A stretch of 32,000 nucleotides of DNA from NCBI GenBank assembly GCA_004563595.2, contig CP042461.1, positions 300,001 through 332,000 of the forward strand, given 5' to 3'. The notes beneath the pieces were generated by a model. That model did no database searches and was not told the origin of the DNA. It was given only the letters and a program-made list of their open reading frames with translations. The DNA is from Candidatus Saccharimonadota bacterium (GTDB lineage: Bacteria > Patescibacteriota > Gracilibacteria > BD1-5 > UBA6164). Positions 2,848 to 30,769 of the stretch are shown here, one piece after another. The position numbers and the translations under genes are program-made. The first letter of the stretch is position 1. Every line of letters starts with the position of its first letter.

Positions 2848-3513
2848 ATGACTACATGAGTAATAATTTTACGTTTATTTATAAGTGCATTACTTTCAAT
2901 GGCAATAGGGTTGGAAAGAGAATTCAAACATCAACCAGCTGGAGTGAGAACTCATATACTTATATGAATTTGATCATGCTTATTTATGATGATTTCAATT
3001 CTAATGACTGAACATTATGCAACTGCAGTAAGTGATCCATCAAGAATAGCTGCTCAGGTAGTATCATGAGTTTGATTTTTATGAGCATGAGCAATTTTAA
3101 AAATGTGATTTAATACAAAGTGACTTACAACTGCTGCAAATATCTGGGCAACTTCTGCTATATGATTAGCAGTTTGAGCCTGATTTTACGCAGCTGCCTT
3201 TGCAGCGGTAGCATTTATTTTGTTTAACCTCGTCTTTGTTTCAAAGATTAAGTGAAAATTTATGAAAAAATCTCGTTATTGTTCCATTCATCTGGAATTT
3301 CTTAAAAAAGATTTATCTGAAAAAAAATTGATAGGAAAATTAGACAAACTTCCTGTAGAAGTATTAACAAAAAACATTAAAGAGGATTCAAAGAAGACCA
3401 ATATTAGAATTATAGCAAAAATAAATAAAAATATTGATATATATGAAGTACATGCAGAGTTAAAAGACATTGAATGACTCTCAAAAATATCGATTTGAGA
3501 AAACGTAAAATAA
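2848..3513 (+). CDS. MgtC/SapB-family membrane protein
   Basis: Sequence: GLEREFKHQPAGVRTHILIGIGSCLFM...SRIAAQVVSGVGFLGAGAI...GLTTAANIWATSAIGLAVGAGFY. By hand count, 15 of 18 Gly codons are TGA. Confidence 0.85.
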
Positions 3514-4908: not shown

Positions 4909-5352
4909 TTATCATTCTTTTTTATTTATTTTTGATAAGAATGGTTTGTCTTTAGAGATGTTGAATTTATTTTTTATAAATCCAGGTAACATATAATTAT
5001 TACTTCTCGAATTATCGAGGGTAAAATTATCTGTTGTGGTATCAGTTTTTATTTTCCTTTTCGAACTATTGAAAGTAAAACGATATACTGTGGTATTAGT
5101 CTCGTTTTTCCCTTTCGAATTATCGAGAGTAGAAGGTAAATACTGTGGTATCAATTTTGCTTTTCCCTTTAATATTGAGAGAAGGCAAACTGAGTGAGCA
5201 TTGGCAAAATCAACATGACCATTATAGCGGTTGATTGCTTTTATTGCTCGTTTAGGACTCAAATTATTTGTAGATACTAATAATTGAGTGAGTTCTTCTT
5301 TCTGTGTACCATTAATTTGTTGGTACTTTATGTTTCCTGTGTTGTTGAGCAT
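4909..5352 (-). CDS. TGA-free repeat protein with a possible ComEA-like HhH N-terminus
   Basis: Strong SD (caaggagaaattcaATG). The N-terminus QINGTQKEELTQLLVSTNNLSPKRAIKAINRYNGHVDF resembles the ComEA helix-hairpin-helix. The C-terminus has three tandem repeats of about 19 aa (..TLDNS..). The gene ends TGA-TAA, so code 25 adds one Gly. Confidence 0.55.
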
Positions 5353-5525: not shown

Positions 5526-6683
5526 TTTTATTACTTTTGCAATTTCATCTGCAACTCATCTATCAAGAGGAGAGGGGATAATCTCATCAACAGTAGGATT
5601 TTTTATATAAGCCGCAAGAGCTTTTGCAGCTGTTATCTTCATATCATCTGTGATTTTATTCACTCTATTTTGAAGTGCTCACTTAAAAAGTCATGGAAAC
5701 ACCAGTACATTGTTCAATTGATTTGGAAAATCAGAACGACCGGTTGCAATAATTTTTGCTCCAGCTTCTTTTGCCAAGTCAGGCATTATCTCTGGGGTAG
5801 GATTTGCCATCGCAAAGATCATTGGATCAGTATTCATAGATCTCACCATATCTTGAGAGAGAGCTCCAGCAACTGATACTCAAATGAATACATCCCTGTC
5901 TTTTACAGCTTCAGTTAATCATCACTTTATACATTCTTTAGAGTCTGGATCAAGAATACACGCTGTATTTGTAATATCAGTAAGCATCTCTTTTGTTGGA
6001 TTGAGCCCATCTCTTTCTTTGTGGATAGTTCATCTGCTATCAACCATAACTATATCCTTTACTCAGTAGAGAAGGAGGAGTTTTGTAATTGCTACTCCGG
6101 CAGCTCATACTCCATTTACTACAACTTTGATCTCTTCTTTAGTTTTTCCTGTGATCTTTAAACCGTTAATAAGTCCTGCAAGGGTTACAATTGCAGTTCC
6201 ATGTTGATCATCATGAAATACTGGTATATCCAGTTCAGCTTTGAGTCTTTCTTCTATTTCAAAACACCTTGGTGCTGAAAAATCTTCTAAGTTAATTCAC
6301 CCAAAAGTCGGAGCAATATGTTTGATAGTTTGTATTATTTCTTCTGTATCTTGAGTATCAAGAATAATAGGGAATGCATTTACTCATCCAAATTCTTTGA
6401 GGAGAGCACATTTTCATTCCATAACCGGAAGTCATGCAATTCATCCTATATTTCCAAGTCATAGTACAGCTGATCCATCGGATATAACGGCTACTGTATT
6501 TGCTTTGAGGGTATATTCATAGGCTTTTTCACTATCTTTTGCTATTTCTCTACATGGTTCTGCTACTCATGGTGAATACGCAAGAGAAAGGTCATCTTTT
6601 GTATTAAGAGACATTTTTAAACCTGTTTCAAGTTTTCCTTGATGTTGCTTATGTAATTTTAGGCTTTCTTTAAAGTAGTCCAT
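5523..6683 (-). CDS. NAD(P)-dependent malic enzyme (short form)
   Basis: 386 aa under code 25. Sequence: ...[14 protein letters not shown]...[36 protein letters not shown]...[19 protein letters not shown]...[13 protein letters not shown]...VNGVGAAGVA. Confidence 0.9.
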
Positions 6684-6852
6684 AGTTTGATTTAAGTTAT
6701 ATGTATAGAAGAGTATTATATATGATTTAAGAATTATGCAAAATAATATATCAGTATTTTTTAACATGAATCCTTACATGCTTCTTACTTAGTATGTATA
6801 TATTGATATTAATTCAATAGGAATATTACTGTATTTGTATATCAATTTTAGT

Positions 6853-6993
6853 ATGAAAGCCTTTAAAGATCAATTACTTGAAAAAGCTAAAAATGAATGA
6901 ATAGGGAAAGCTATTGAGTATTTAGATGACTTGAATTTTCCTGATAAAAATAAAAAAGAGATATTAGATTTTATTAATGATAATTATAGATAA
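6853..6993 (+). CDS. Possible small protein (46 aa)
   Basis: ATG to TAA with one TGA. No homology recognised. It could be non-coding. Confidence 0.3.
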
Positions 6994-7012
6994 GAAAATT
7001 ATAGATTTTTTA

Positions 7013-7040
7013 TTGACAAATTAAATAAATAATCTATAAT
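7013..7040 (+). promoter_or_regulatory. Sigma70-type promoter for purL
   Basis: TTGACA (7013-7018), 16-nt spacer, TATAAT (7035-7040). The start codon lies about 65 nt downstream. Confidence 0.6.
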
Positions 7041-7106
7041 TTTTCAGCATTTTTTTGTTCATTAACATTACTGAAATCTGTTGAAAAATACAGAAAGGAA
7101 AGCGCT

Positions 7107-10100
7107 ATGTTACAGTTATATGTAAAGATAGACCAAAATAAAGAGAAATGTTTCAGTATTGATGTGAGTTCTGAACTTACGCAAGATGAATCAAAGATTC
7201 TTTATGAAATTCTAGCCCCAGGCTGGGAAGTAGATCTAATCAGTCTTAGACCTTACCTTGATATTTGTGATGGGAAAGGTGTTGAGATTGGACCACGTAT
7301 GAACTTTGAAACAGCTTTTTCTACGAATGTAGTTTCTACATACCATAATATTGGTTTGCAGAAGGTTCTTCGTGTTGAAAAATCTATCCGGTATCTTACT
7401 GATAATGTTTCAAGAGTAATTGAAATACAATGTGATCGTATGACCCAAGAGGTCTATTATAGACCTCTTGGGTCATTTTCTCTTGATCGTCCTGTTTATG
7501 AAGTAGTTAAACTTGGGCTTTTTGAAAATGGTATTGATGCTTTTAGCTTACTGAAAGGTCTTTCTTTTAGTGAACAAGATAAACAGATTTATTATGATTA
7601 TTTTGTGAATAAAGAAAAGAGAAATCCTACGAATGTGGAACTGTTTGATTTATTAAACTCTAATTGTGAACACTCACGACATGGTTGGTTCAATGCACTT
7701 CAAATTATTGATGGGGTTGAGCAGGAACATTCTGCTTTTTCATTGGTTAAATCAACTTTACAAGCAAATAAAAATGGGAGTGTAATTGGTTTTCATGATA
7801 ATTCGAGTAGTATTCGTGGTTTTATTGGAAAAATATTAATACCAACTTGTCCTGGTCAACCTTCTGAATTTATTCCACGAGTAGTTGATTGGGATCTTAC
7901 CTTTACAGCTGAAACTCATAACTTTCCAACTGGTATTGCTCCATATCCTGGAGCAGCTACTGGTACAGGAGGTCGTTTACGTGATCAGATGGCAACAGGG
8001 AAAGGAAGCAATGTTATAGCTGGTACTATTGGTTATGATGTTTCGTCTCTTCATATTGAAGGTTATGAATTGTCTGGTGAAAATCCAGATTTTCATTCTC
8101 CTGAGAATATGGCGACTGGCTTAGAAATCTTGATTCAAGGAAGTAACGGTGCCTCTAATTATGGAAATGAGTTTGGTGAACCTCTCATTCAAGGTTATAG
8201 TCGTAATTTTGACCTGAGAATTCCAAATGGTGAACGCTGGGCTTATGTAAAGCCTATATTGTTTACTGGTGGAATTGGGCAAATGCGACATGAACATCAT
8301 GAAAAAGGTCATGCAGAAAAAGGTTTACTTATCGTTCAGGTAGGTGGTCCTGCATATCGTATTGGCTTTGGAGGTGGTGCTGCTTCTAGTATGCATCAAG
8401 GTGATAATGATGCTGAACTTGATTTCAATGCCGTGCAACGTGGCAATGCTGAAATGGAGAAAAAACTGTATAATGTTGTACGTACTTGTAATGAGATGGG
8501 TGAAAACTCTCCTATTGTAAGTACACATGACCAAGGTGCAGGTGGTCCAGGAAATATACTGAAAGAACTTGTTGAAGAATCTGGAGGGAGAGTTGATATT
8601 CGTAAAATCAATAGTGGTGATCCGACATTATCGGTATTGGAACTGTGGGTTTGTGAATTTCAAGAACGTGGTGGTTTTTTAATTCCTCGTGATCGAATTG
8701 AAGAATTTTTATTAATTTGTGAAAGGGAGAAAGTTCCATGTGAAATATTGGGTGAAGTGACTGGTGATGGACGTTTTGTAGTTGAAGATAGTCATGATGG
8801 ATCAACTCCTGTTGATTTTGACTTAAAAGCAATTCTTGCTGATTTCCCTCGTACTACGTATGAGGATACAAGAATTGATCTTGGATTACAATCACTTGAA
8901 ATTCCTGATGAATTAACTGTATCTGTTGGACTTGAGAGAGTTTTTAAACTTCTTTCTGTTGGTTCAAAAGGTTACTTAGTTCACAAGGCTGATCGAAGTG
9001 TAAGTGGCCTAATTGCTCAGCAACAGTGTGTAGGTCCTCTCCAGTTACCATTATCAAATGTTGCTGTAATTGCTCTTTCTCATTTTGAGTTATCGGGTGG
9101 AGCAACAGCTCAAGGTGAAAAGTCGCCTTGTATGATAGTGAATCCAGAAGCAGGAGCTCGTTTATCGATCGCAGAAATGCTCATGAATATGATGTGTGCT
9201 GGTATTACTGATATTAAGCATGTTAAATGTTCTGTAAATTGGATGTGGGCACCAAAAAAACCAGGTGAAGGAGCTGCATTGTATGATGCAGTAAATTCTA
9301 TGTCTCAATTTATGCCACTCCTTGGAGTAGCAGCAGATGGAGGGAAAGATAGTCTATCTATGGCAGCTGAAGTGAATGGTGAATTAGTAAAATCACCAAG
9401 AACAATGGTTGTTTCAGGGTATGCTCCAGTAGCAGATATTACAAAAGTTGTCACACCAGATATTAAAAAACCTGGTGAAAGTCAGCTTTTGTATATTGAT
9501 TTATCTGCTGACTTGGCTCGCTTAGGTGGCTCAGCTTTTGCTCAATCACTTGGGCAGATCGGGAATGAATGTCCTGATATTGATACTCCAGAGCTATTAT
9601 TAAGTTTATTTGATGCTATTCAGGGGTTAATTACTGAAGATTTCATCTTGTCATATCATGATATTAGTGATGGAGGTCTTATTACGACGCTTTGCGAAAT
9701 GGCTATGGCTGGTAATTGTGGTATTGATGTTAATATACAGACTCAACAGGAAGCAATAAATAAGTTGTTTGCTGAAGAGCCAGGAATTATCATTGAAGTA
9801 CAACATGATTATATTGATGAAGTATTAATGGCTTTAAGCTTAAAAGGGGTAGGTTTTCAAAAAATTGGTGAAACAATTCCATGGAAGCATATAACTATTC
9901 ACGTAAATGACGATGAGGAGTTTAATCTAGCAACAAAAGATGTTCGTCAGTGGTGGAATGAAACTTCGTATCAGTTAGAAAAACAACAAGGAAATACTTG
10001 TGCTGATGATGAAAAAATGAATACTGATGACTTAAAAAATCCACAGTATTCATTAAGTTTTGTTCCTGAAATTACTTCAAAAGAAATTTTGGAGTCTGAT

Positions 10101-10895
10101 GAAAAAACCTGGGTTGCGGTGATTCGTGAAGAAGGAAGTAATGGAGATAGGGAAATGATATCAGCGCTTTATATGGCTGGTTTATGTCCTGTTGATATTA
10201 CTATGTATGATTTGCTGAATAAAAAAGTAGATCTTGCAGCTTTCCGTGGTGCTGTCTTTGTAGGAGGTTTCTCTTATGCAGATTATCCGGAATCAGCCAA
10301 AGGTTGGGCTGCAACTATTAGAAACAATCCAAGATTAAAAACTATGTTTACAGCGTTTAAGGAGCGCAGTGATACCTGGTCATTTGGTGTTTGTAATGGT
10401 TGTCAAATGATGGCTTTACTTGGTTGGGCAGTTTCTTCTGATATTCCTGAAGTAGAAAGACCTCGTTTTGTAAAAAATGTGTCTGATAAATTTGAGTCTC
10501 GTTATACTACGGTAAAAATACCAGAAAGTCGTTCGATTATGTTTAGTGGAATGTCTGGTTCGGTGTTACCGGTGTGGAGCGCTCATGCTGAAGGACAAAT
10601 TTTTGCTGATCAAGAATTATTAGCAAAAATGAGAATAGAAGGAAATGTTCCAGTGTTATACGCAGATAATGAAGGGGAAGAAACTCAAGATTATCCGTTT
10701 AATCCGAATGGGTCACCACTAGCAATTGCTGGTTTGTGTAGTTCAGATGGTCGGCATACAATTATGATGCCGCATCCAGAAAGACTTTTTCAGACTTGGC
10801 AGTTCTCATGGTTACCTGAAGAAATGCAAAACTTAACTGCATCACCTTGGCTGAAGATTTTTCAGAATGCCAGAGAGTGGTGTGAACAAAATTAA
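7107..10895 (+). CDS. purL: Phosphoribosylformylglycinamidine (FGAM) synthase, single-chain large PurL
   Basis: 1262 aa, uninterrupted even under the standard code. The glutaminase nucleophile GVCNGCQMM and the MMPHPER motif are present. All Gly codons (about 112 by hand count) are GGN and none is TGA. Ends in TAA. Confidence 0.95.
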   Translation: MLQLYVKIDQNKEKCFSIDVSSELTQDESKILYEILAPGWEVDLISLRPYLDICDGKGVEIGPRMNFETAFSTNVVSTYHNIGLQKVLRVEKSIRYLTDNVSRVIEIQCDRMTQEVYYRPLGSFSLDRPVYEVVKLGLFENGIDAFSLLKGLSFSEQDKQIYYDYFVNKEKRNPTNVELFDLLNSNCEHSRHGWFNALQIIDGVEQEHSAFSLVKSTLQANKNGSVIGFHDNSSSIRGFIGKILIPTCPGQPSEFIPRVVDWDLTFTAETHNFPTGIAPYPGAATGTGGRLRDQMATGKGSNVIAGTIGYDVSSLHIEGYELSGENPDFHSPENMATGLEILIQGSNGASNYGNEFGEPLIQGYSRNFDLRIPNGERWAYVKPILFTGGIGQMRHEHHEKGHAEKGLLIVQVGGPAYRIGFGGGAASSMHQGDNDAELDFNAVQRGNAEMEKKLYNVVRTCNEMGENSPIVSTHDQGAGGPGNILKELVEESGGRVDIRKINSGDPTLSVLELWVCEFQERGGFLIPRDRIEEFLLICEREKVPCEILGEVTGDGRFVVEDSHDGSTPVDFDLKAILADFPRTTYEDTRIDLGLQSLEIPDELTVSVGLERVFKLLSVGSKGYLVHKADRSVSGLIAQQQCVGPLQLPLSNVAVIALSHFELSGGATAQGEKSPCMIVNPEAGARLSIAEMLMNMMCAGITDIKHVKCSVNWMWAPKKPGEGAALYDAVNSMSQFMPLLGVAADGGKDSLSMAAEVNGELVKSPRTMVVSGYAPVADITKVVTPDIKKPGESQLLYIDLSADLARLGGSAFAQSLGQIGNECPDIDTPELLLSLFDAIQGLITEDFILSYHDISDGGLITTLCEMAMAGNCGIDVNIQTQQEAINKLFAEEPGIIIEVQHDYIDEVLMALSLKGVGFQKIGETIPWKHITIHVNDDEEFNLATKDVRQWWNETSYQLEKQQGNTCADDEKMNTDDLKNPQYSLSFVPEITSKEILESDEKTWVAVIREEGSNGDREMISALYMAGLCPVDITMYDLLNKKVDLAAFRGAVFVGGFSYADYPESAKGWAATIRNNPRLKTMFTAFKERSDTWSFGVCNGCQMMALLGWAVSSDIPEVERPRFVKNVSDKFESRYTTVKIPESRSIMFSGMSGSVLPVWSAHAEGQIFADQELLAKMRIEGNVPVLYADNEGEETQDYPFNPNGSPLAIAGLCSSDGRHTIMMPHPERLFQTWQFSWLPEEMQNLTASPWLKIFQNAREWCEQN

Positions 10896-10915
10896 AAGGA
10901 GTGAAATAAGAGAAA

Positions 10916-10946
10916 ACGTGTAGATTTAAATCTACACGTTTTTTTG
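10916..10946 (+). terminator. Rho-independent terminator after purL
   Basis: 10-bp perfect stem acgtgtagat-ttaa-atctacacgt followed by a T-run. Confidence 0.85.
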
Positions 10947-10959
10947 TTGTAAAAATTAT

Positions 10960-10988
10960 TTGACAAATATGTATAAAATACGTATAAA
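10960..10988 (+). promoter_or_regulatory. Sigma70-type promoter for the purN-like gene
   Basis: TTGACA (10960-10965), 17-nt spacer, TATAAA (10983-10988). Confidence 0.55.
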
Positions 10989-11056
10989 TACTTGAATAAA
11001 TTATGTAAAATAGAGATGGAGGACTCTAGATTTTTATTTTTTTAATAATTATTTTT

Positions 11057-11953
11057 ATGTTCCAATTTCTAGAAGTATATAAGTTTTTGTTATTCAGTAG
11101 TTTTTTGAATTCAAAAGAGAGATGATATGATGATTTATCGACTGTATGAATACTTGCTACAGGATGACCAGATTGAGGTTGAAGTTGAGCAAGAGTATTA
11201 ATAGAAAAAATATTAAATTGAGAATTTGCTGAAGTAAATAAACTTGTATTAATTACAAATTATACAAAAGGATGAGTTGCAAAAATATTTGAAAAGTATA
11301 AAGATCAACTACAAGAAATAGATGTAAACCTGGAACTAAAAATAGTTAAAAATTTTCCAAAGAGGTGAGAAAATGGTGAATTTACTCCAGAAGATGATCA
11401 ATGGATCAGAGATACATATCAAGAAATTTTAACAACATATGGTTTAGATTACCTCCATTGCTCTTGATGGATGAAACATATTTTATGATTAAGCCCAAGT
11501 ATATCTCAAAATATTCATCCAGGTCCAACTAAAGAACCATATGGTTGACTCGGAATGCATGGAGATAATGTTCATGAATTGGTTTGGGAAGACTATCAAA
11601 AATGAATCATTAATCAATCATGTGTAACGATGCACTTCGTTATTGAAGAACTTGATAGAGGACCAATTTCAGTACAAATACCCGTAAGTATTGCTAGTTG
11701 CAAATCAGCTGATGATGTTTGATCTGAAGTAAACAAAACAGAACATAAATATCAATATATAGTGTATAAAATGTTACTAGAAGGTAAGATTACATGGTCA
11801 TGAAATAAAGAAGACCCCGTTCAAATTGATAAGGATGAACTAGAGAAGTATGATTTCCCTGAGGGGACAGTATTTGGTGGAGAGGTAGAATTAAACAAGT
11901 GGGCTTGATTAGCAGAGGCTGAAATGAATGCGTGGTTAGATGGGGAAGAATAA
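11057..11953 (+). CDS. purN: Formyltransferase, PurN-like (GAR transformylase) with N- and C-terminal extensions
   Basis: Code-25 translation gives ...GSGARVLIEKILNG...LVLITN...SQNIHPGPTKEPYGGLGMHG...CVTMHFVIEELDRGPISVQ. This is the PurN N-x-H and D-x-GPI catalytic pattern. About 16 in-frame TGA = Gly codons. The first in-frame ATG is at 11057, so the start is uncertain. Confidence 0.7.
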
Positions 11954-11985
11954 AAAAAAGTGTAGGTAATCCTACACTTTTTTTT
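11954..11985 (+). terminator. Rho-independent terminator after purN
   Basis: gtgtagg-taat-cctacac hairpin followed by a T-run. Confidence 0.8.
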
Positions 11986-12058
11986 ACACACTTATTATTG
12001 ACTTATTAATAAATACTATTATAAATAGTATAGCTAATGAGGCTAAAAACAAAGGAGA

Positions 12059-13219
12059 GTGAAAATGGTTGATTTATACGAAGTAGCTGGTGTAGATGTA
12101 GAGGCAGGTGATACTGCTTCTTCAATTGCAGCAAAATTTTGTAAAGAAACGTATCAAAATTCACCGATTGCATCAGTTGTTGATATGACAAATGGTAATT
12201 TTCGTGGACCACGAGCAATTGATTTGGATGATAAATTTCGTATGAAACCTTATTATCTCTCATGTGCTCCTGATGGCATTGGTACCAAAGTGGTATTACA
12301 TGATGCTGCGAAAACCTATGGTGTTGCTGCATTCGACCTTATAGCAATGACAAGTTTTGATCTTGTTCGTTGGGGAGGGATGCCAGTATTTTTTACATCT
12401 GTATTAGATGTAAGTAAATTAGGGAAACCTGATTCTGATTCATTTAAAGCAACGGTTGCCTTATACTCCGGTGCAGCAAAGGCTGCTACTGAAGTGGATA
12501 TGGTTATTTTGAATGGTGAAACTGCTGAATTGGGTGCTCAAGTAGCTTCAGAAAATCCTGATGGAACTTTACAGTTTAACTGGGGTGGTTCTGCTCAAGG
12601 ATTATATCATCCTGATAAGATGATACTAGGAAAGACGCTGAAGCCTGGTCAAGTTATTATGTTGTTAAAAGAAAATGGATTTCGTAGTAATGGTATTTCA
12701 TTAGTACGATCAATTTTTGCTCATCAATATGGTAAAGACTGGTATACAAAACCAGATGCACAAAAATATATTCGTATGGCAGCAGAACCATCTGTTCTTT
12801 ATGATAAGTTTTTTTGTAGTATCAATGGTTGGTATGAAGATGATTCACAACGGATTAAAGTTCATTCATTGGTTCATCTCTCAGGAGGGAGTTTTGAATC
12901 AAAATTTGGGAAAGATATTCTTTACCCTCTTGGCTTATCGGCTGATATCTCTGATCCATGGGAATTACCTGAAATCATGCAAGAGTGCTCCGAATGGGGA
13001 ACTTCAGATGGAAAAATTGATGATTTAACATTATATAGAACCTGGAATGGAGGCCAGGGAGCATTAGCTGTTATTGATAAAATTGATGCAGAAAAATTTA
13101 TGGAAGAAGCGACAAGATTTGGCTTAGAAGCAAAAATAGGAGGGGTAATAACAAAAAATGATACTCCATCTGTTCGATTAAAATCGAGTTTAACAGGGGA
13201 TGATATCATTTTTGGATAA
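12059..13219 (+). CDS. purM: AIR synthase (PurM)-like protein
   Basis: Sequence: YEVAGVDVEAGD...CAPDGIGTKV...AFDLIAMTSFDLVRWGGMPVFF...ILNGETAELG...ENGFRSNGISLVR. The SD aaaggagag favours ATG 12065 over the track's GTG 12059. About 37 Gly codons, none TGA. Ends in TAA. Confidence 0.85.
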   Translation: MKMVDLYEVAGVDVEAGDTASSIAAKFCKETYQNSPIASVVDMTNGNFRGPRAIDLDDKFRMKPYYLSCAPDGIGTKVVLHDAAKTYGVAAFDLIAMTSFDLVRWGGMPVFFTSVLDVSKLGKPDSDSFKATVALYSGAAKAATEVDMVILNGETAELGAQVASENPDGTLQFNWGGSAQGLYHPDKMILGKTLKPGQVIMLLKENGFRSNGISLVRSIFAHQYGKDWYTKPDAQKYIRMAAEPSVLYDKFFCSINGWYEDDSQRIKVHSLVHLSGGSFESKFGKDILYPLGLSADISDPWELPEIMQECSEWGTSDGKIDDLTLYRTWNGGQGALAVIDKIDAEKFMEEATRFGLEAKIGGVITKNDTPSVRLKSSLTGDDIIFG

Positions 13220-13242
13220 TTTCACAATCAAGTGAATAGTTT

Positions 13243-13268
13243 GCAGGCACTAAAAGCCTGCTTTTTTT
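13243..13268. terminator. Terminator between the convergent purM and DUF2132 genes
   Basis: gcaggc-actaaaa-gcctgc hairpin followed by a T-run. Confidence 0.75.
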
Positions 13269-13275
13269 ATGGGTA

Positions 13276-13512
13276 TTATTTTCTCTTTCTCTCAAGCATT
13301 GTTCTTACATATAATCATTGAACTTGAGTACGTGCCCATTCTGTTTTTCTGAGAAATTTAAGACTTGATTGTTTACTCGGGTTACTGGCAAAGCAATTCA
13401 CTCTTACTAACTCACTGAGTTTTTCAAACCCGTATTCTTCGACAAGTACATCTAGAATGGTAGCAAGAGTAACTCCATGCAACAATGCATGATCTTTATT
13501 CGTTTGGTTCAT
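13276..13512 (-). CDS. VF530/DUF2132-family small DNA-binding protein
   Basis: Sequence: [55 protein letters not shown]. The track ORF stops at TGA 13315-13317. Code 25 continues with [13 protein letters not shown] to TAA at 13276-13278. Confidence 0.65.
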
Positions 13513-13624
13513 AAGTTTATGATTATGTATATTAATGTTTTTTATGTTTATATATTATTTAAATAATATTAATTATCAATAGTATATTGCCTTCTATATA
13601 TAAAATAGACAATAAATTATATAT

Positions 13625-14050
13625 GTGCTATTATATATTTACTTATCTACTTCTGAGGATGGTCTTATGTCTATTTACGATAGTGAATATATTTTAAATT
13701 TATTTGATCTTATTATTACAAGAATAGGAGAGAATGTAAAAGAGCCAGAAAAATGTTGGTTTAAAGCTTCTTGTGGGGGTGAGCCAATAGCTTATACTAA
13801 ACTTAAAAGTTTATCTGATAAGAATAAAAAAACTTTTGTTTGGAGTATGGTTCTGATTCATGGTTTTATTGGTAAAACATTACTCCATGGTTTAGAATAT
13901 AAACGTCAAGGTGGAAAAAATAATTTACATTTTGACATGGACTTAGCCTTTGAAACAGATAAGGATAAAAAGGAATATATAGAGTTTCGTGAATTTGTGA
14001 TAAGTGCAGACTCTTCTGTAGAAATGCTTGATGCAGTTCTTGAAGACTAA
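13625..14050 (+). CDS. TGA-free hypothetical protein (127-141 aa)
   Basis: Uninterrupted ORF. The likely start is ATG 13667 (MSIYDSEY...). Gly codons are all GGN, W is TGG, the stop is TAA, and it has its own terminator. Confidence 0.55.
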   Translation: MLLYIYLSTSEDGLMSIYDSEYILNLFDLIITRIGENVKEPEKCWFKASCGGEPIAYTKLKSLSDKNKKTFVWSMVLIHGFIGKTLLHGLEYKRQGGKNNLHFDMDLAFETDKDKKEYIEFREFVISADSSVEMLDAVLED

Positions 14051-15069: not shown

Positions 15070-15532
15070 ATCGTATCTTGATGAGAAGCAAGAAGAGCTA
15101 TGAGAATATAATAGACTCCTTCAAATGAGGGAAAATATATTAGAACAATGAAGAAGTTGATATATTTCTGAAGAGGCATTCCAGCAGGCATGGAATCAAC
15201 TAGAGGATGAAATTCAAAATTATTTGATAAAGAAGAATGTATATAAACCTGAAATAAATATAGGTATGTTACTTTGTATGGTTATACAAAAAGTATCTAT
15301 CGAAATTAATGATATATTAAATGGATGAGGCTCTGGTTCTTGAGGGAGGAAATGACATGCTCACAGATATGAAACAGACAATGAGCAATTTTATAAAAAT
15401 GAGGCAGAGGATATAGCAAGAAGTGAGGAGTTAGAATGTAAGAAAAAACAGGCAAGAGAAGAAATGAAAAGATTTAGAAAACAAGAGGAAGAATATTCTA
15501 GATTTCATCAAAAGAATGGCCACCGTATGTAA
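15059..15532 (+). CDS. Hypothetical coiled-coil protein (157 aa), overlapping the upstream gene by 11 nt
   Basis: ATG 15059 lies inside the last codons of the HD gene. Contains a central GGGSGSGG linker, partly TGA-encoded. The C-terminus is charged. Confidence 0.5.
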
Positions 15533-15593
15533 AATAAGTGTAACTAAAAAAATGGGGGTTTTGATTGATATAATTGAATACCTCGTTTTAATT

Positions 15594-15623
15594 AAAAAGT
15601 CCTCGTTAAGAGGGCTTTTTTTT
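15594..15623 (+). terminator. Rho-independent terminator
   Basis: gtcctc-gttaa-gagggc hairpin followed by a T-run. Confidence 0.65.
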
Positions 15624-15713
15624 GACTTTATTTTATATATAGTTTGAATAAAATTTTTATGAGGTATAATTAAAATAGACATAAAAGAATATATTTTTTC
15701 ATCATATACATAC

Positions 15714-17012
15714 ATGTTATTTTCAGATTTAGATATTATCAAACCTATTTTAAATGCTCTTGATAAACAAGGATATAAAAATCCTACTCCTATTCAAGAA
15801 AGAGCTATTCCTCATATCCTTGATGGAAAAGATGTACTTGGTTCTGCTCAAACTGGGACAGGGAAGACAGCAGCGTTTGCTATTCCAATATTACAACTCT
15901 TATCAAGAGAAAAAGAAATTTCAAATTTTTCAGGTGCTATTAAGTGTCTTATCCTGACACCGACTCGTGAGTTAGCAATTCAGATAGAGGAAAATATAAA
16001 AGAGTACTGAGCTCAGTTATGACTTCGTCATTCCGTTATTTTTGGTGGAGTAAGTCAAGGTTCACAAGTCAGAAAACTAAAAGCAGGAGTTGATATCCTG
16101 GTAGCCACTCCATGAAGATTATTAGACCTCATGAATCAATGATATGTTGATTTAAAAAAAGTTGAAATATTCACACTCGATGAAGCAGATAGAATGCTGA
16201 ATATGGGGTTTATAAATGATGTAAAAAAGGTCCTTGCAAAATTACCAACTAAAAGACAAACACTGTTCTTTTCAGCAACCATGCCAAAAGAAATAGCTTG
16301 ACTTGCAGATTCTATTTTAAATCATCCTGTAAAAATTGAAGTCACTCCTGTTTCTTCTACGGCTGATACAGTCAAACAAGTAGTATTTTTTGTTACTAAA
16401 TGAAGCAAAAAACTTCTTTTAATAGATATTTTGGAATATAAAGGGATAAAATCACTCCTTGTTTTTACCCGTACGAAACATGGGGCTGATAATGTAGTGA
16501 AAGATCTTGTAAAATCAGGGGTAACAGCTGAAGCTATCCATGGAAATAAATCACAAAATGCCCGTCAAAGAGCACTCAAAAACTTCAAAGGATGAGTAAC
16601 AAGAGTTCTCGTTGCCACTGATATAGCAGCCAGAGGGATTGATATCGATGACCTCACATTTATGGTCAATTATGACTTATCAAATGAACCAGAAACATAT
16701 GTACATCGTATTGGTCGTACTTGAAGAGCTTGAAAAAATTGAGTTGCCTACTCTTTTTGTTGCCAAGAGGAAGTAGAATATCTCTTGGATATTCAAAAAA
16801 TGCTATGAAAAAAAATACCAGTGAATGAAAAACATCCATATGCAATAACAGTTGATGAAAGCATTAAGGCTCCAAAAAGACAACAATGAGGAAGAGGGAG
16901 ATGAGGACGCTGAGGCTGAAACTCTTCAAGACATTGAAATAGTTCAAAGTGAAAAAGACCAGCTGTGGCGAAAAGGAAAAATAATGTAAAAAGGAATAGA
17001 AATAAAATATAG
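15714..17012 (+). CDS. DEAD-box ATP-dependent RNA helicase
   Basis: Motifs present: Q motif, [23 protein letters not shown] (the G is TGA at 16113-16115), DEAD, SAT and HRIGRTGR. The tail is RG-rich (GGRGRGGRGGG), largely TGA-encoded. Confidence 0.95.
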
Positions 17013-17262: not shown

Positions 17263-17814
17263 GTGAATCATTATTTGAGCTATGTGCTCGATAGTAAAGA
17301 AGTACGTAAAAAGCTTGGGAATGATACGATGTTTCATTTTGATCAGTCGCCACTGGTGTATGCTGAAATTTGGAAACCCATAGAGATTAGCTTTGCTAAA
17401 TTATCTGGTGTTAAGAAAGGTGATATCCCGGATTTGATGATTCGTAATGGCCGTTTGTTCTTGAATGAAAAAGCATATGAATGTTTGCGTGAAACTTTGG
17501 AAGCTCATGGAGAATTTTTACCTGTTACATTTGGTAGTGAAGCTGGTTATCTTTTCAATATTTTGAGGTTGGCCGATGATATTGGGGGGCTCAATCAAAA
17601 ACTCAGTACTAGAGATGAACATGATGATTTACAATCATTGGTCTTCCATGAAGAGAAAATGATAAAAATATTGGTTTTTCGCACCTCTTTTGATGATTAT
17701 ATGGGTGTGTATTGCAATGGTGCCTTTAAGCAAGCCGTGGAAAATGCTGGATTGAAAGGACTTGTTTTTAGTCTGGATTTGTGAAATATCTTTCCGACAG
17801 ATTCTTCTGTGTAA
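17263..17814 (+). CDS. TGA-free Imm11/DUF1629-like putative immunity protein
   Basis: 173-aa ORF from GTG 17263 (alternative ATG at codon 23) with no internal TGA. The layout ..PD...L.L.EKAYECL...GEFLPV...YLFNIL...VFR... recalls DUF1629/Imm11. The standard-code stop is TGA 17782-17784. Code 25 reads on as G-NIFPTDSSV to TAA at 17812-17814. Confidence 0.55.
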
Positions 17815-18079: not shown

Positions 18080-18118
18080 ATAGTTAGTAGGTTATAACTT
18101 TATACACCTACTAACTAT
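18080..18118 (+). promoter_or_regulatory. 13-bp perfect inverted repeat overlapping the start codon of the 1116-aa gene
   Basis: atagttagtaggt (18080-18092), 13-nt loop, acctactaactat (18106-18118). The ATG is at 18117-18119. Confidence 0.6.
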
Positions 18119-21100
18119 GAACTTTCAACAACTTTTAGAAAATATTGAAACATCTCCAGAAATTTTAGAATACTTAAAATATGAAGATTCAACACAAGTG
18201 TTGGATGATATTTTGGAAAACTATAACGATGAACAAGACTATAATTTTCTTTTTCAAATATTTCACACATATATAGGGAATAATTTTCCTTATATTAGGA
18301 ATATATGATTTATTTTTGAAAAACTTATTGAAGAGTGAAAAGTAGAAAACACTCAAGAATTAGAGGAGTTTTTAATTGAAAAACTAACTCATTATGCTGA
18401 TAAGTTAAGAGAATGAGATAGGGATATTCTAAGTAAACTCCTTGTTAGTTTTACAACTCGTACAGAAGAAATGAAAGTTATATATAATAACCTAGAAAAA
18501 AAAGGGTTTTTAAGTGTCTCATCAGTATGATTTTTTACTAAATATTTTGCGAAAGAAGAAAAATGAGACTTTTTCATCAGGTCTTTTTTATATGATGAAA
18601 AAACATGGTTTAGAGGAGTGTTTATCTCTGGAAAAAATGAGGAATATCCTTTAAAAGGTATACAGAAAAGTATTCTTGATTTAGAACAAAAGCAATTTGC
18701 TCACTTTTTAACGGAAATTTCTAAAAAAGAAAATATAGCTTCATGGATTCGTAATGATAATGATTTTACAGATAATATTATAGCTACGGCAAAGTGATAT
18801 AAATTATTTTCGGAGTTATATATATTACTTACGAATATGTTAATGTATTCTAGAAATTATGAATACTCAGAAACTGATGCATATACAACCAAATTAAGAA
18901 CTATATTTGATATATGTAAGAATCAGAAACCAGTCCATTTTTATATTAGATTTTTTAAAGATATAAACTATTGAAAAGAAGGGTTCTATTATTTTAGATT
19001 GTTTGATGATTTTATAGGTCAAACACTACAAACAGAAGAAGACGTAAAGGATTTATTAAGTATGCCTGATTTACAAGAAAATAACTATATTTTAGGATAT
19101 AGGATATTTCAGTTTGTAAAACACTCGGATAGAAAAAATATAATTGAGTTTTTTCAAAAACAAATAGGGAAAGAAATTACTTTACATAGTGAAAATCAAA
19201 AAAAATATCTGGAAAATCAAAAAAAAATCCAAACAGAACAAGATAAGGAAATTAAGGAAGAAATTCAACAAGAATTAATAGTGGCTAAAGATACTGATAG
19301 AAAAATATCTTTTAAATTATTAGAATTTTATATTGGACAAAGTGATTTGTTTGAGGAAGAAAATATCGAGCAAATTATTACTGAACAAGTGAAAAGATAT
19401 TTTGAGTTTAAAAATTTAGATCCAACAAGAAAAGAAGCATTAGAGTCATTTAAAAAAACTGATACATGACATAGCTCTTATCAATTTCTTATTGATTCTT
19501 CTTTAGAAACTATACTAAAAACTGCAGAAAAACTTGGTATAGATTTATCAGAATACACAAGTAAAATAGTATGATTTATTCCCTTTAAGTATGATGGGGA
19601 GGATTTAAAGAAAATCCTTGATCTGGTTGCAGTTAATATTTCTTCAAAGGATATTGATCATATACTTTATGTATACAATACTTACCCTGACATTAATAGA
19701 TATCATATTTTTAATCTTATTTATTTTTACAAAAGAGTAAAAGATATAGTATCAGAAAATTGAGAGCAAAGAGCAGGATTTATCGGATTATTCAAAGAAC
19801 TATTAGAAGATGACTCAGTTTTTGTTTCCGATAAATTAGAAACATTAGTGGAATTGGAAGAATTATGAGTTGAAAAAAGTATTTACCAAGGTGTATTTGA
19901 TAAATATGATGCTGTATTTCCTGGTTTTAATTATTACAAGGACTACTTAGATAGTACTGGTAAATATGATTTCCAATTAGTTTTTAAGTCAAATGAACTA
20001 CTCATAAAACAAGGATATGTAGACGCTATTCAATGGAGAATTGATCAAGTAAGAAATTGATTTATCTCTTGTCCTGAAAAAAAGTGATGGTGATCTATTA
20101 CAAATTTACAATCAGAAATACATTTTGGTAGAGAGTTTATTCAAATATTTTCCGATTTTAAAACGGAACAATGTATACCAGAGATACTTGAATTATTAGA
20201 ATTTACATTTGAAAATTATAAGAAGTATCCAGAGTTTAGTAGATATATATGGGAAGGGATAAAAAAGTATTTAGACTGACTGCAAGGAGTATCTGAAATA
20301 ACTATTTTGATAGAGGGGATATGAGAATTATTGTTTAAAACTGAAAGTAGTGAAATTTCTGTTTATTTTAAAAGGTATATTGATGAGATAGATAATGGCA
20401 ATTTTATTGTTAATATAGATAATAGTATTCATGCCCACGAATACATTGAATTAAAGGAAAATATTTCAAAAGTTATTAAACAAAAAAATAAAATAGAAAG
20501 AATAATGGGTGATTTTGAAGAAAAAAATCACCGTAAGGATGAAGAAATTAAAGAGCTAAGAGAAAGATTAAATGAGATGGATAACAGTTACAGAAAATTA
20601 TCAACTGAAAATGAGTATAAAAATAAGAAAATAAAAGAATTATGAGGAAAGGATATAGTGATATTAACCGAATGAAAAACTGATTGGAAGCATTTAATGA
20701 GGGCTTGGAAAGAATTAAGTAATATGTGATTATTAAAAAGTAATAGTATAGCATATGACTTTGAAAACTATGTTAAAAAATATGAAGATATAAATAATCT
20801 TATATGATGAACCGATTCCATAGATGGCTTTGTGAAAAGTTTTGCTGAATTATTTCCTGAAACATTAATTATAGTTATATTTGATACCGATTCATTTGGT
20901 CAAGGTAAAGAATTAAGGCAATTAAGAGTAAACTATAAAGAGAAGAAAAAAAGGAAGAAATTTAAACAATATGATTACTATAATTTTAAAAAAGAGGATG
21001 AAATTTTAGGTATTGAAAATACATATAAAAACTTATATTTATTTTTTCTACCAGTACCTCAATTTAGAAAAAAAAGCACTTTTTATAATAAAGAAATATG

Positions 21101-21467
21101 TATTGAGTTCTATTATGATGAATACTTATTAAATAGGTATCAATTTATTAGAAAATGTCAGCGAGGTCCAATTATACATAAATATGATAAATCTGTTCAT
21201 TTAATAGATAATATACATTATAGTTTTGGAAAAAAAGATAGACTTATTTTTGATGCAAATGAAAAATTACCATCTCATGATATGAATGGTGACCCATGTA
21301 GAGGGAATCTTTTGTATACTAAAAATCATTTTGCAGAAGATATACTAAATAATTTCCCTAGAAATAACCCTGAATATAAATCACCTTTAGATTACACTTG
21401 GAAAAGATTTTTACCAATATTTAAATGAATTAATGAAATTATTATAGATTTTAAATCCAAATTATAA
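18117..21467 (+). CDS. Large (1116 aa) helical protein with a C-terminal coiled coil and a Toprim-like (E...DxD) module
   Basis: Track ORFs 18117, 18999, 20331 and 20832 are all in one frame, separated only by TGA. An in-frame TAG at 18081 fixes the start. The C-terminus reads GKDIVILTEGKTDWKHL ... LIIVIFDTDSFGQG ... ICIEFYY. No P-loop is seen. Confidence 0.75.
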
Positions 21468-23441: not shown

Positions 23442-24827
23442 CTATGAATAGTTATTTGTATTGCTAGATTCATATTTATAATTGCTATAAATTCAACTCA
23501 AACTTTCTTGCAATATATTAACAAATTCTGGAGAAAAGGCTTTCTTTCATTGAGGGATAACATGAGCGTATGCTCTTAGTATCATATCTATATTAAAACT
23601 TGATGTGAAAAGATTTGAAGAGGTATATAGTTGATCTTGCTTTGAAAAATCTGTAAGTATTTCTTGTATTCTTTTCTCAATACTTTCAACATTATTTTCT
23701 CACGCTCTAATTTTTCAAGCGGAATAAAAGAGGTCTAAATGCTTACTTTGTTTTTTTATATATTTTATTAATTCAAGATATCATAAAAATAGTTTTTCTA
23801 AAGAATTTAATTCTATATAAATGTTAGTCCACTCAGGTTTGTTCGTATAAAACATCTGCATGTTCTTTACAATTTGTGTGTATTTTTCAAGCTCTATATG
23901 ATTCTTTTTATTTGGAATTATAAAAAACTTTTTCTCATGGTAAGTTATAGAGTGAATATTTATTATTGATTCTTTATGAATTTCCGAAAATTTAAGATTC
24001 TTTCTCATTTTTTCTTTTTCAATAAAATTATCTGGGTTGTTAAGTGCTAAAAAACTTCTATATAGAATATTATCTTTTTTACTGACTTTATCTATTAAAG
24101 AATAAATAAAATTAGTAATTTGTTTTCTGTTCCATGATTCATATTGTTTTTTATACTTAGCGCTATTTGCCTCTACAAAAGTCTCAAAACAGGGGTTCCA
24201 TATTATTGTATAAGTTGACTCTTCTTGTTTAAAATATAATTTGGCCCTCCGATTATCATTTTCAAAAATATTAAAGCCAATATCTATACATCAGATCATA
24301 TATATTTCTACTCAGTTAAATAATATTTCTGTTTGATCATAATACTCAACTATTTGCATAAGTTTTTTGTATAATTCAGGTGAGACTGTTCATATGATAT
24401 ACTCTCAATTTGTTTCACCTTTTAGGGTGCTTCATATATCCAATTCTTTTTGATACTTGTAGCAAGTCCGTTTATATATCATGCATATATAATCTAGAAT
24501 CTTACATAAATACTTTATTTCATTGGAGTTGAGAAATAAAGTTGAATTTCAAATTGAGAATTTAAATTTATTTGGGGAAATTTTTAGTATGTATTTTCTT
24601 TCTTCTATAGGTTTCCATATATAACTTATGAGATCTGTATCAATATTTTTTTTACATAAGTGTATTAGTGTTTTAGACTGTGAATTACAATAAATAACCA
24701 TGAAAAAAAGGGATTCATCATTTTTTTCATGGAATTGCTTTATATTTGGTATATATAAGTCTCACTTCATGTATTGCGAATCAAAGTGCCAAGTATAATT
24801 GCATTTTTTTGCTATCAATTTATTCAT
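23442..24827 (-). CDS. Hypothetical protein (461 aa), no recognisable domain
   Basis: Runs from ATG 24825-24827 (minus) to TAG. It is in frame with track ORF 23781-24008 and has about 11 TGA codons. No tyrosine-recombinase R-H-R-Y pattern. Confidence 0.65.
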
Positions 24828-24995: not shown

Positions 24996-25071
24996 TGGTA
25001 CACCCGGCAGGGATCGAACCCACGCTAACCAAGGTCCGCGGCCTTGTGCTCTTCCACTGAGCTACGGGTGC
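24996..25071 (-). tRNA. tRNA-Arg (anticodon GCG), CCA-encoded
   Basis: 76-nt cloverleaf: GCACCCG-TA-GCTC-AGTGGAA-GAGC-A-CAAGG-CCGCGGA-CCTTG-...-GTGGG-TTCGATC-CCTGC-CGGGTGT-A-CCA. The acceptor and D arm resemble bacterial tRNA-Arg. The anticodon lies at 25037-25039. Confidence 0.8.
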
Positions 25072-30232: not shown

Positions 30233-30769
30233 TTAAGCAGCTTTTTTGTAAGACTTCTTATTTTTTTTCATCTCGATTCTCTCAGAGAGTTCAATCCGAT
30301 ATTTATTATTTTTTGGAGAGGTTCTTCTCCCATAGTCTTTACAATTTATTTTATACTTCTTCTTTGCATGATGAGTAAATAGAGCCATAAGACACTCTAC
30401 TAAATCTTCTGCTGAGTCTTGTTTTAGGAATTTGGAAGCAGCATTACTTCCAAGACGTAACAAGGTTTCTAAAAAAAAGTATCTTTTCGTCCCATAGTAA
30501 TTTTCAAGTATAATATTGTACTCAGTAAAATTATGGGATTTTTTTAGTATGACTTCTTCATTTGTAAAACGGCTACTTACGAGTACTCCTTTTTCTGTTA
30601 GAATTAATCTTAATACAATACATGCAGCCTGCTTTCGATTTTTTTGAAAACCTTTTTGCTTTGCAACTGCGATAGCTAATTCGAATTGTTCATTTCCAAT
30701 ATTTCGGAGATAAAAACAATCTTCTTTTTCTATATCTGTTTTAGTATCAACTGAAGTGAACTGTTTCAT
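30233..30769 (-). CDS. TGA-free hypothetical protein (178 aa)
   Basis: Uninterrupted ORF with SD aaggaa 8 nt upstream and a TAA stop. All 6 Gly codons are GGN. The C-terminus is basic. Confidence 0.55.
   Translation of the reverse strand: MKQFTSVDTKTDIEKEDCFYLRNIGNEQFELAIAVAKQKGFQKNRKQAACIVLRLILTEKGVLVSSRFTNEEVILKKSHNFTEYNIILENYYGTKRYFFLETLLRLGSNAASKFLKQDSAEDLVECLMALFTHHAKKKYKINCKDYGRRTSPKNNKYRIELSERIEMKKNKKSYKKAA

Follow-up and report, generated by a model that had tools for sequence, protein, structure and literature searches.

Three purine synthesis genes, purL, a purN-like gene, and purM, lie side by side in a 32,000-nucleotide stretch of the chromosome of Candidatus Gracilibacteria bacterium 28_42_T64 (contig CP042461.1, positions 300,001 to 332,000; hereafter the window, from whose first nucleotide coordinates are counted). 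The genome is closed and read-curated, and most genes for purine and pyrimidine synthesis have been reported for it (Sieber et al. 2019, PMC6851277), so the cluster is not the isolated three-step subpathway that a preliminary description of the locus had taken it for. The window is written in genetic code 25. Open reading frames (ORFs) tile it only when TGA is read as a sense codon, whereas under the standard code the long ORFs that remain are purL and purM, with only a few short ones beside them. Glycine motifs, for example GGSTGGH of MurG, also reappear when TGA is read as glycine, and proteomic validation of UGA as glycine exists (PMC4032931). In the window genes other than purL and purM, TGA makes up 279 of 512 glycine codons, a TGA share, defined as TGA/(TGA+GGN), of 0.545. 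purL and purM themselves contain no in-frame TGA, and we describe below how they belong to a class of UGA-free genes, discrete and conserved, within recoded genomes.

The first gene, purL (7107-10895, plus strand; 1262 codons), encodes a large single-chain phosphoribosylformylglycinamidine (FGAM) synthase. Its product scores above the curated equivalog cutoffs of both TIGR01735 (1394 bits versus 1123) and NF003672 (1302 versus 783), with residues 11-1258 aligned, and its Pfam domains (FGAR-AT_N, AIRS_C, FGAR-AT_PurM_N-like, and GATase_5) follow the order expected of a large FGAM synthase. The motifs GVCNGCQ and HPER (C1096, H1223, and E1225), which we take to hold the catalytic cysteine and the histidine and glutamate of the glutaminase, are invariant across its clade. 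The last gene, purM (12065-13219, plus strand; 384 amino acids), encodes an aminoimidazole ribonucleotide (AIR) synthetase of a kind typical of candidate phyla radiation (CPR) bacteria, which we call type A. Its ORF opens at a GTG at 12059, and the ribosome-binding site (RBS) AAGGAG points to the ATG at 12065 as the start. PurM falls below the equivalog cutoff (TIGR00878, 119.7 bits versus 236.35), yet the alignment runs end to end (7-364 of 386), and the Pfam cutoffs are passed (PF00586, AIRS, 29.4 versus 24; PF02769, AIRS_C, 28.6 versus 23.1). The catalytic motifs are present in PurM, and its neighborhood is purine related as well, with purN and purL adjacent in the window and a type B homologue lying within a purL-purN-purM cluster in comparison contig L139 (L-numbers denote comparison contigs and P-numbers comparison proteins). 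Public records of this divergent CPR-type family often read only "AIR synthase-related" or "hypothetical."

Between these two genes lies a divergent purN-like gene (11057-11953, plus strand; 298 amino acids), encoding a protein resembling glycinamide ribonucleotide formyltransferase and annotated at NCBI as a hypothetical protein. It scores below the curated cutoffs (TIGR00639, 34 bits versus 150; PF00551, Formyl_trans_N, 24.1 versus 26.1). Its NIHP and ELDRGP (ELDxGP) motifs are presumably the catalytic Asn-His...Asp motifs, judging from PurN of Escherichia coli. The protein is also 33% identical (E, 4e-28) to the product of the Formyl_trans_N gene immediately upstream of purL in L085, a standard-code, AT-rich contig whose PurL is ∼55% identical to that of the window.

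All 112 glycine codons of purL are GGN (GGA, 29; GGT, 61; GGC, 6; GGG, 16), as are all 37 of purM. At the TGA share of the window, the chance of drawing these zeros is ∼1e-38 for purL and ∼1e-13 for purM. The purN-like gene between them has 16 TGA and 15 GGN codons, and the MgtC gene at 2848-3513 (Pfam MgtC) has 15 and 3. Relative to their neighbors (about 0.25-0.33), purL and purM have a high overall GC content (0.373 and 0.369), but the excess is confined to the first and second codon positions (0.53/0.39 in purL; 0.51/0.41 in purM). The GC content at third positions (GC3), 0.202 and 0.194, is that of the neighbors (about 0.20; range, 0.14-0.31). For arginine, purL uses CGT 23 times and AGA 15 times, whereas the neighbors mainly use AGA. 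Codon counting therefore bears out the TGA and GGN counts that the preliminary description gave for purL, purM, purN, and the MgtC gene, along with its CGT-favoring arginine usage in purL, while its impression of GC richness holds overall and fails at third positions. The window carries a single tRNA gene, for tRNA-Arg with anticodon GCG (24996-25071, minus strand), and a tRNA-Gly(UCA) gene is absent from the window. CPR bacteria typically use tRNA-Arg(GCG) to read CGU and CGC without inosine (Shulgina and Eddy 2021); the TGA-free genes favor CGU among the arginine codons.

Each of the three genes is furnished with its own expression signals, and here too the earlier account, which had given all three their own terminators and purL and purN TTGACA-type promoters, proved right. 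The purL promoter region (6995-7043, plus strand) holds a perfect sigma-70 consensus, TTGACA-16-TATAAT, at 7013-7040, set within a 20-nucleotide inverted repeat (6995-7014/7024-7043; 95% complementary) that looks like an operator. The position of this promoter is kept upstream of purL in L001 and L083. In the 5' untranslated region, the leader motif CATTTTTTTGTTCATTAACAT (7048-7068, plus strand) can be aligned among the window, L001, and L002, and in part with L083, despite differing upstream neighbors. At the gathering threshold and at E≤1 alike, Rfam returned no known RNA or riboswitch for either leaders or junctions. Downstream of purL stands a bidirectional terminator (10913-10942), a perfect 15+15-nucleotide palindrome between A and T runs. 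It is followed by a promoter-like site for purN (10960-10988, plus strand; TTGACA-17-TATAAA), a terminator 3' of purN (11951-11986; a perfect 16+16-nucleotide hairpin with A and T runs), a promoter-like site for purM (11998-12025, plus strand; TTGACT-16-TATAAA), and a terminator 3' of purM (13243-13268, plus strand; a GC-rich hairpin at 13243-13261 and a T run), the two promoter-like sites being read off the sequence. Terminator-like sites are enriched in the window (13 observed versus 3.0±1.7 expected), and promoter-like sites are not (34 versus 35). Promoter, conserved leader, RBS, and terminator move together with the gene, giving it the structure of a cassette. Inside the purL coding sequence, at 7440-7476 (plus strand), there is also a 37-nucleotide perfect palindrome (18-nucleotide arms, 100% complementary, with a 1-nucleotide loop) followed by a T-rich stretch.

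The contrast between TGA-free and TGA-rich genes is seen again in 11 further recoded contigs assembled independently (ENA, JGI, and Logan), where TGA-rich genes border the TGA-free ones on both sides. For purL, TGA accounts for 0 of 112 glycine codons in the window, 0/98 in L001, 0/112 in L002, 0/113 in L083, and 0/103 in L084, and the genes flanking it in these four contigs use TGA for most of their glycine codons. For purM, the counts are 0/37 in the window, 0/34 in L086, 0/35 in L087, 0/33 in L088, 0/36 in L090, and 0/37 in L091. These orthologues share just 52-83% protein identity. Three other genes behave alike: those for threonine synthase (thrC; L002, 6483-7922; 0/29) and orotate phosphoribosyltransferase (pyrE; L002, 16731-17420; 0/21) and a radical SAM/SPASM maturase-like gene (L083, 9321-10694; 0/24). 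They resemble purL and purM in making little use of ATA and AGA and in their elevated GC3, and the contigs around them are TGA rich, so the TGA-free class is wider than the purine genes. An artifact, either an assembly chimera or misbinned standard-code DNA, has next to no probability as an explanation. Binning errors do happen around these genes, one PurM relative being labeled Tenacibaculum in a public metagenome-assembled genome, but the source genome is closed and read-curated, the pattern recurs independently, and the third-position composition is host-like. The chimera raised as a possibility in the preliminary description can accordingly be set aside.

Both proteins belong to well-delimited clades. 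For PurL, 11 relatives are 58-72% identical to the window protein, followed by many at ∼55%, among which all those with a named source are Desulfobacterota; gammaproteobacterial PurL proteins are only 36-39% identical. A contig search with PurL returned no Gracilibacteria, Proteobacteria dominating it through the shared peptide VCNGCQMM. Against 106 other PurL proteins of the ∼55% group, P0001-P0012 were monophyletic in 100 of 100 neighbor-joining bootstraps, with distances of up to 0.70 within the clade and 0.71 to the outgroup. Type A PurM forms a 17-member clade (100/100 bootstrap), and its next relatives, of CPR type, are at most 50% identical and all come from standard-code contigs. Wherever the gene context of a member of either clade could be checked, it was recoded (13/13). 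In standard-code gene calls, PurL P0002 and PurM P0132 are intact and their neighbors shattered.

Several observations tie these lineages to the chromosomes in which they are found. In the window as in L002, the block MurG-PAP2-HisRS lies a few kilobases from purL, and its divergence (protein identities of 69, 55, and 66%) matches that of purL (65%); the same DEAD-box helicase is encoded close to purL in the window and in L083. Similarly, purM sits directly downstream of one ABC-ATPase gene in L086, L088, and L091 and beside the BipA gene in L087 and L090. The PurL and PurM lineages are thus old clades, inherited with native neighbors. Between the HisRS gene (1452-2729) and the DEAD-box helicase gene (15516-17012), the gene content of the window differs from that of the syntenic regions of L002 and L083, which gives this part the appearance of a variable region.

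Such ages bear directly on the idea, favored in the preliminary description, that purL and purM were imported recently from standard-code donors and have simply not had time to gain UGA. The absence of TGA, the higher overall GC content, the CGT-rich arginine usage, and the foreign affinity of PurL would all fit a neutral lag of this kind. However, GC3 is already neighbor-like, the closest donors are at most 55% (PurL) and 50% (PurM) identical, and all orthologues, at 52-83% identity, are TGA-free although their synonymous sites are saturated and the adjoining native genes gained TGA in the meantime. We regard recent import as highly improbable. Of the earlier proposal, the mosaic and the foreign character of the lineages stand; its recency does not, since the orthologues in all recoded contigs examined are TGA-free. 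Nor are the genes barely ameliorated, given their neighbor-like GC3 and the distance to their nearest standard-code relatives (∼55% for PurL; ≤50% for PurM), and the suggested gammaproteobacterial or host donor gives way to named relatives in the Desulfobacterota for PurL and to a CPR type for PurM. In the PurL and PurM trees, the code-25 orthologues group together and are TGA-free, an outcome that the preliminary description had itself read as pointing to selection over transfer.

To what extent UGA is kept out of these genes becomes clear from comparison with native ones. Across 14 genes (five purL, six purM, thrC, pyrE, and the radical SAM gene; 9,787 codons), none of the 824 glycine codons is TGA, while TGA occurs off frame 916 times (177 in the +1 and 739 in the +2 frame). 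An in-frame zero with abundant off-frame TGA is the profile of a standard-code gene. The plentiful off-frame TGAs also rule out avoidance of the trinucleotide at the DNA level; likewise, a reading of CGA and CGG as tryptophan in these genes was rejected, these codons aligning with conserved arginines and never with tryptophan. Native genes, meanwhile, exchange UGA freely. In pairs of ABC-ATPase and BipA genes (81-89% amino acid identity) chosen to leave out the window, 23-42% of conserved glycine columns were discordant, in both directions (e.g., 6 versus 7 and 6 versus 8). A figure of 41% from pairs of the window with other contigs was set aside because it partly reflects a unidirectional shift in the lineage of the window, which is slightly richer in GC. 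Polarized with L088 as the outgroup, the ABC gene gained TGA from GGN five times and lost it seven times along the L086 and L091 branches, whereas the purM beside it has GGN at 26 of 26 shared columns (P = 4.5e-8). Time was not short in the TGA-free genes: third positions of conserved glycine and 4-fold codons in purL and purM differ in ∼50% of columns, near saturation, and in the purL of L084 arginine usage has become nearly native (AGR, 0.85) with TGA still at 0/103. Since UGA is absolutely absent while native neighbors gain and lose it, purifying selection appears to treat UGA in these genes as nonsense, and we consider active exclusion of UGA from the resident genes likely.

Extreme translational codon bias, in which purL and purM would be highly expressed or demanding of accuracy and UGA would be the least preferred glycine codon, could in principle produce such exclusion. 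Across the saturated lineages, the TGA-free genes do have low ATA (0.17-0.22 versus 0.52) and AGA (0.38-0.46 versus 0.80), with TTA, CAA, and AAA also low; purL has a perfect consensus promoter and a strong RBS; and the BipA genes show a reduced TGA share of 0.25-0.57. The size of the effect, however, is of another order. With 0/824, the upper bound on TGA is 0.36%, which corresponds to a log-odds shift of >5.9, compared to shifts of 0.65-2.5 for ATA, AGR, and TTA. The 72 native genes compared have TGA shares of at least 0.25, leaving a gap between 0 and 0.25, and the share correlates with neither ATA, AGR, nor A3 (third-position A) usage; the trends among natives would predict a share of 0.62-0.79 for the TGA-free genes. 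IF-2, RecA, SOD, DnaJ, and ClpB genes are TGA rich, and the isofunctional purM of a close relative has 37 TGAs. Selection on codons this strong is also unexpected in symbionts with small populations. We therefore judge codon bias very unlikely as the explanation. The BipA genes, with the lowest TGA share among the natives (L087, 1433-3232; L090, 1-1075; L139, 2554-3912; neighbors, 0.7-0.9; IF-2, 0.94), have GGN at many glycine sites in all three genomes. These codon counts for BipA hint at some avoidance of TGA among native genes, graded and specific to the gene.

How the two TGA-free genes came to flank a TGA-rich one is suggested by two further recoded contigs, L139 and L140, whose PurN proteins are 72% and 65% identical to that of the window (TGA/GGN, 22/7 and 22/9). 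L139 has, in order, the C terminus of a fused PurL (11 TGA/1 GGN), purN, a PurM gene (37/6) whose product is 37% identical to the window's, and BipA. In L140, the gene upstream of purN encodes the C terminus of a large PurL that scores 248 bits with NF003672 and shares 35% identity with the window protein (15 TGA/10 GGN). Altogether, the flanking PurL and PurM versions in these contigs are 35-39% identical to those of the window. The L139 PurM, our type B, is not sister to type A (0/100 bootstrap), and it has TGA at 19 of the 22 shared glycine columns where the window has GGN. The two fused PurL types upstream of purN, TIGR01857-like in L139 (1-333) and TIGR01735/NF003672-like in L140 (3-656), are both TGA rich, and their presence beside purN implies that the purL slot has been replaced repeatedly among Gracilibacteria. 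Because purN at 65-72% identity stands beside TGA-rich purL and purM in L139 and L140, it is native, and the window cluster is a true mosaic. purL-purN-purM is a shared arrangement with purN as its native anchor, and with gene order conserved, the anchor orthologous, and the flanks of another lineage, the locus shows the features of xenologous displacement. We conclude that it is very probably a mosaic operon formed by in situ gene displacement.

These results leave room for the idea that the TGA-free genes mostly reside where UGA signals a stop and re-enter code-25 chromosomes by allele replacement, the chromosomal copies being too young to have gained TGA. Candidate reservoirs would be standard-code "Gracilibacteria" bearing release factor 2 (RF2), host bacteria, or TGA-free phages. 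The exact standard-code signature (zero in frame, plenty off frame, CGA and CGG as arginine), a codon usage intermediate between L085 and the natives, a GC3 that is roughly constant across hosts, allele replacement at conserved loci, and the cassette-like gene organization are all in keeping with it. Standard-code, RF2-bearing "Gracilibacteria" are known (PMC8629427), and in-frame TGA is missing from 34 of 38 phages predicted for Gracilibacteria (PMC10746230). As a set, purL, purM, pyrE, and the radical SAM gene are also reminiscent of phage auxiliary genes, and PurM matches phrog_1207, a generic PurM family that was the sole PHROGs match. No member of such a reservoir was found, however: 13 of 13 checked contexts are recoded, chromosome-like contigs, and a scan of JGI metagenomes with clade-specific patterns (>50% identity) returned recoded contigs only. 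GenBank phages, searched by tblastn, reach at best 36% (PurL) and 28% (PurM) identity, and IMG/VR, queried with both individual proteins and alignments of the clades, yielded a 32% PurM, 33-41% giant-virus PurL proteins, and nothing for pyrE or thrC. Pfam revealed no prophage or phage hallmark gene in the window; a KilA-N gene lies near purL in L002 only. Furthermore, the measured gain rate together with 0/824 demands a mean chromosomal residence of less than ∼1.3% of the L086-L091 split time, so nearly all clade members would be expected outside code-25 chromosomes, where 0 of 13 were seen, and purM is co-linear with the same native neighbor in three contigs. A reservoir with rapid turnover is therefore unlikely in our judgment.

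Given these comparisons, we consider the best overall explanation to be a displaced mosaic locus combined with long-term selective exclusion of UGA from its resident genes, and we put its probability at roughly 0.55. A large PurL with nearest standard-code relatives in the Desulfobacterota and a type A PurM would have taken over the slots flanking purN, and the displacing lineages would since have kept in-frame UGA out as if it were still a stop. As to the cause, we tentatively favor the idea that these genes need to be translated without UGA-to-glycine decoding. The cassettes would have to remain translatable when tRNA-Gly(UCA) decodes UGA at a limiting rate or not at all, for instance during starvation or phage attack, and under such conditions a single UGA would act like a null mutation. 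More doubtful still, the imported cassettes (purL, purM, pyrE, thrC, and the radical SAM gene) could, by analogy with other codon-dependent regulons, form a "UGA-free regulon" that is usable when UGA decoding fails. Failure might be triggered by glycine or one-carbon starvation, by phage attack on tRNA-Gly(UCA), or by a host defense that sacrifices this tRNA, and the reassigned UGA would then work as a translational switch for the whole genome. On this view, the avoidance of in-frame TGA by most of the phages predicted for Gracilibacteria would likewise be explained. In a more radical variant of this scheme, cassettes with a universal sigma-70 promoter, a Shine-Dalgarno sequence, and a terminator may be expressed inside standard-code host cells.

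A number of observations weigh against selective exclusion in resident genes. L139, a close relative of L087 and L090 by its BipA (87-89% identical), runs the PurM step with a purM containing 37 TGAs, so UGA-free genes are not required for purine synthesis itself. With 16 TGAs in the purN between purL and purM, the three-step segment could not be made whole if UGA decoding failed. The GC3 of the TGA-free genes is 0.19-0.22 in most lineages, whatever the host GC3 (0.06-0.20), and this constancy is equally expected from a common outside pool. The L088 purM is 54% identical to the purM of L086 and L091 while the adjoining ABC gene is 81-85% identical; this mismatch, and the occurrence of both type A (L087 and L090) and type B (L139) beside BipA, implies that alleles have been swapped between Gracilibacteria. 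Core native genes near the TGA-free ones are TGA rich (TGA/GGN: IF-2, 59/4; RecA, 26/7; ClpB, 25/5; SOD, 7/0; DnaJ likewise). Finally, our trees are neighbor-joining trees only, and the native gene set contains no ribosomal-protein or EF-Tu genes, the class of highest expression.

One further ORF of the window (127 amino acids; 13667-14050, plus strand), furnished with a promoter-like site, an RBS, and a terminator of its own, possibly belongs to the same TGA-free class: it has 0 TGA and 9 GGN codons, and the chance of 0/9 given a native TGA share of 0.58 is ∼4e-4. Its family is small (20 representatives at 50% identity). The AlphaFold model has a predicted local distance difference test (pLDDT) score of 91.5 and no significant match in PDB, and searches of Pfam, NCBIfam, and PHROG gave no match and PADLOC a weak one only. 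Between purM and this ORF lies a gene for a VF530-family DNA-binding protein (13276-13512, minus strand; 78 amino acids, 1 TGA), homologues of which are encoded downstream of purM in L138 and close to purL in L002; a plus-strand ORF at 13232-13582 was discarded as spurious in its favor. Four short ORFs have low TGA counts, namely, 17329-17814 (plus strand), 4909-5352 (minus), and 30233-30769 (minus) in the window and 6508-6927 (minus) in L088 (1/13, 1/7, 0/6, and 2/13, respectively). They have the top GC3 of their contigs (up to 0.31), and one of them bears a weak resemblance to Imm11. Unlike purL and purM, they may have been acquired more recently and be in the course of gaining TGA. ORFs at 18117-21467 (plus strand; 1116 amino acids) and 23442-24827 (minus strand; 461 amino acids) have no Pfam match.

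Codon reassignment is usually viewed as complete, uniform across the genome, and genetically isolating. In the genomes described here, reassignment has passed over a discrete set of chromosomal genes, and our data point to strong long-term selection, not lack of time, as the reason. Should this be true, UGA decoding could be conditional and form a new layer of global translational control, episymbionts could be trading working genes with standard-code partners far beyond what sampling suggests, or the reassigned codon could carry an unrecognized cost. As the class is sharply defined (a TGA share of 0 versus at least 0.25), these options are directly testable, and its members can be listed in every genome of the Gracilibacteria and Absconditabacteria. 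Chromosomal UGA-free genes are not described in PMC6851277, PMC4032931, PMC8406219 (a gene-content study of these phyla), PMC10746230, or PMC8629427, nor did literature searches recover a description. In practical terms, TGA-free genes are called intact in the standard code and so are easily misbinned, and the absence of in-frame TGA is unusable as a clock of recent transfer in recoded genomes.

Among known systems, the closest in arrangement are mosaic operons, which Omelchenko et al. reportedly described in 2003 as arising through in situ xenologous gene displacement. The purine locus is like them in its kept gene order, its orthologous anchor (purN, 65-72%), and its flanks, which are only distant homologues (35-39%) of their counterparts. 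It differs in that the displacing genes are set apart by code compatibility, with no UGA versus many, and that this difference is kept indefinitely. As an analogy for expression hinging on the codon of one dedicated tRNA, the bldA/TTA regulon of Streptomyces may be likened to the UGA-free genes. The logic would be inverted here, most genes having the codon and a small set lacking it, and we use the comparison as a working analogy only. The TGA-free genes also avoid the major codons of other dedicated tRNAs (AGA, TTA, and ATA as well as TGA), which might parallel the codon choice robust to starvation, by way of selective isoacceptor charging, that Elf et al. are said to have put forward in 2003.

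Code-11-compatible, TGA-free phages have been predicted for Gracilibacteria and Absconditabacteria (Liu et al. 2023, PMC10746230). Like the genes described here, theirs are associated with code-25 hosts, lack in-frame TGA, and are readable in both codes. Those, however, are whole phage genomes whose lack of TGA is explained by a broadened host range, whereas we observe single metabolic genes amid TGA-rich natives on the chromosome, with no phage genes nearby and viral relatives of at most 41% identity. The last comparison is with the amelioration of horizontally transferred genes, as reportedly set out by Lawrence and Ochman in 1997. purL and purM resemble ameliorating genes in being foreign and atypical in their codons, with third positions and, in part, arginine choice having drifted toward the host. 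Amelioration predicts convergence on host usage, but in these genes TGA stays at zero while the rest ameliorates, as in the purL of L084, where AGR has reached 0.85 of arginine codons and TGA remains at 0/103.

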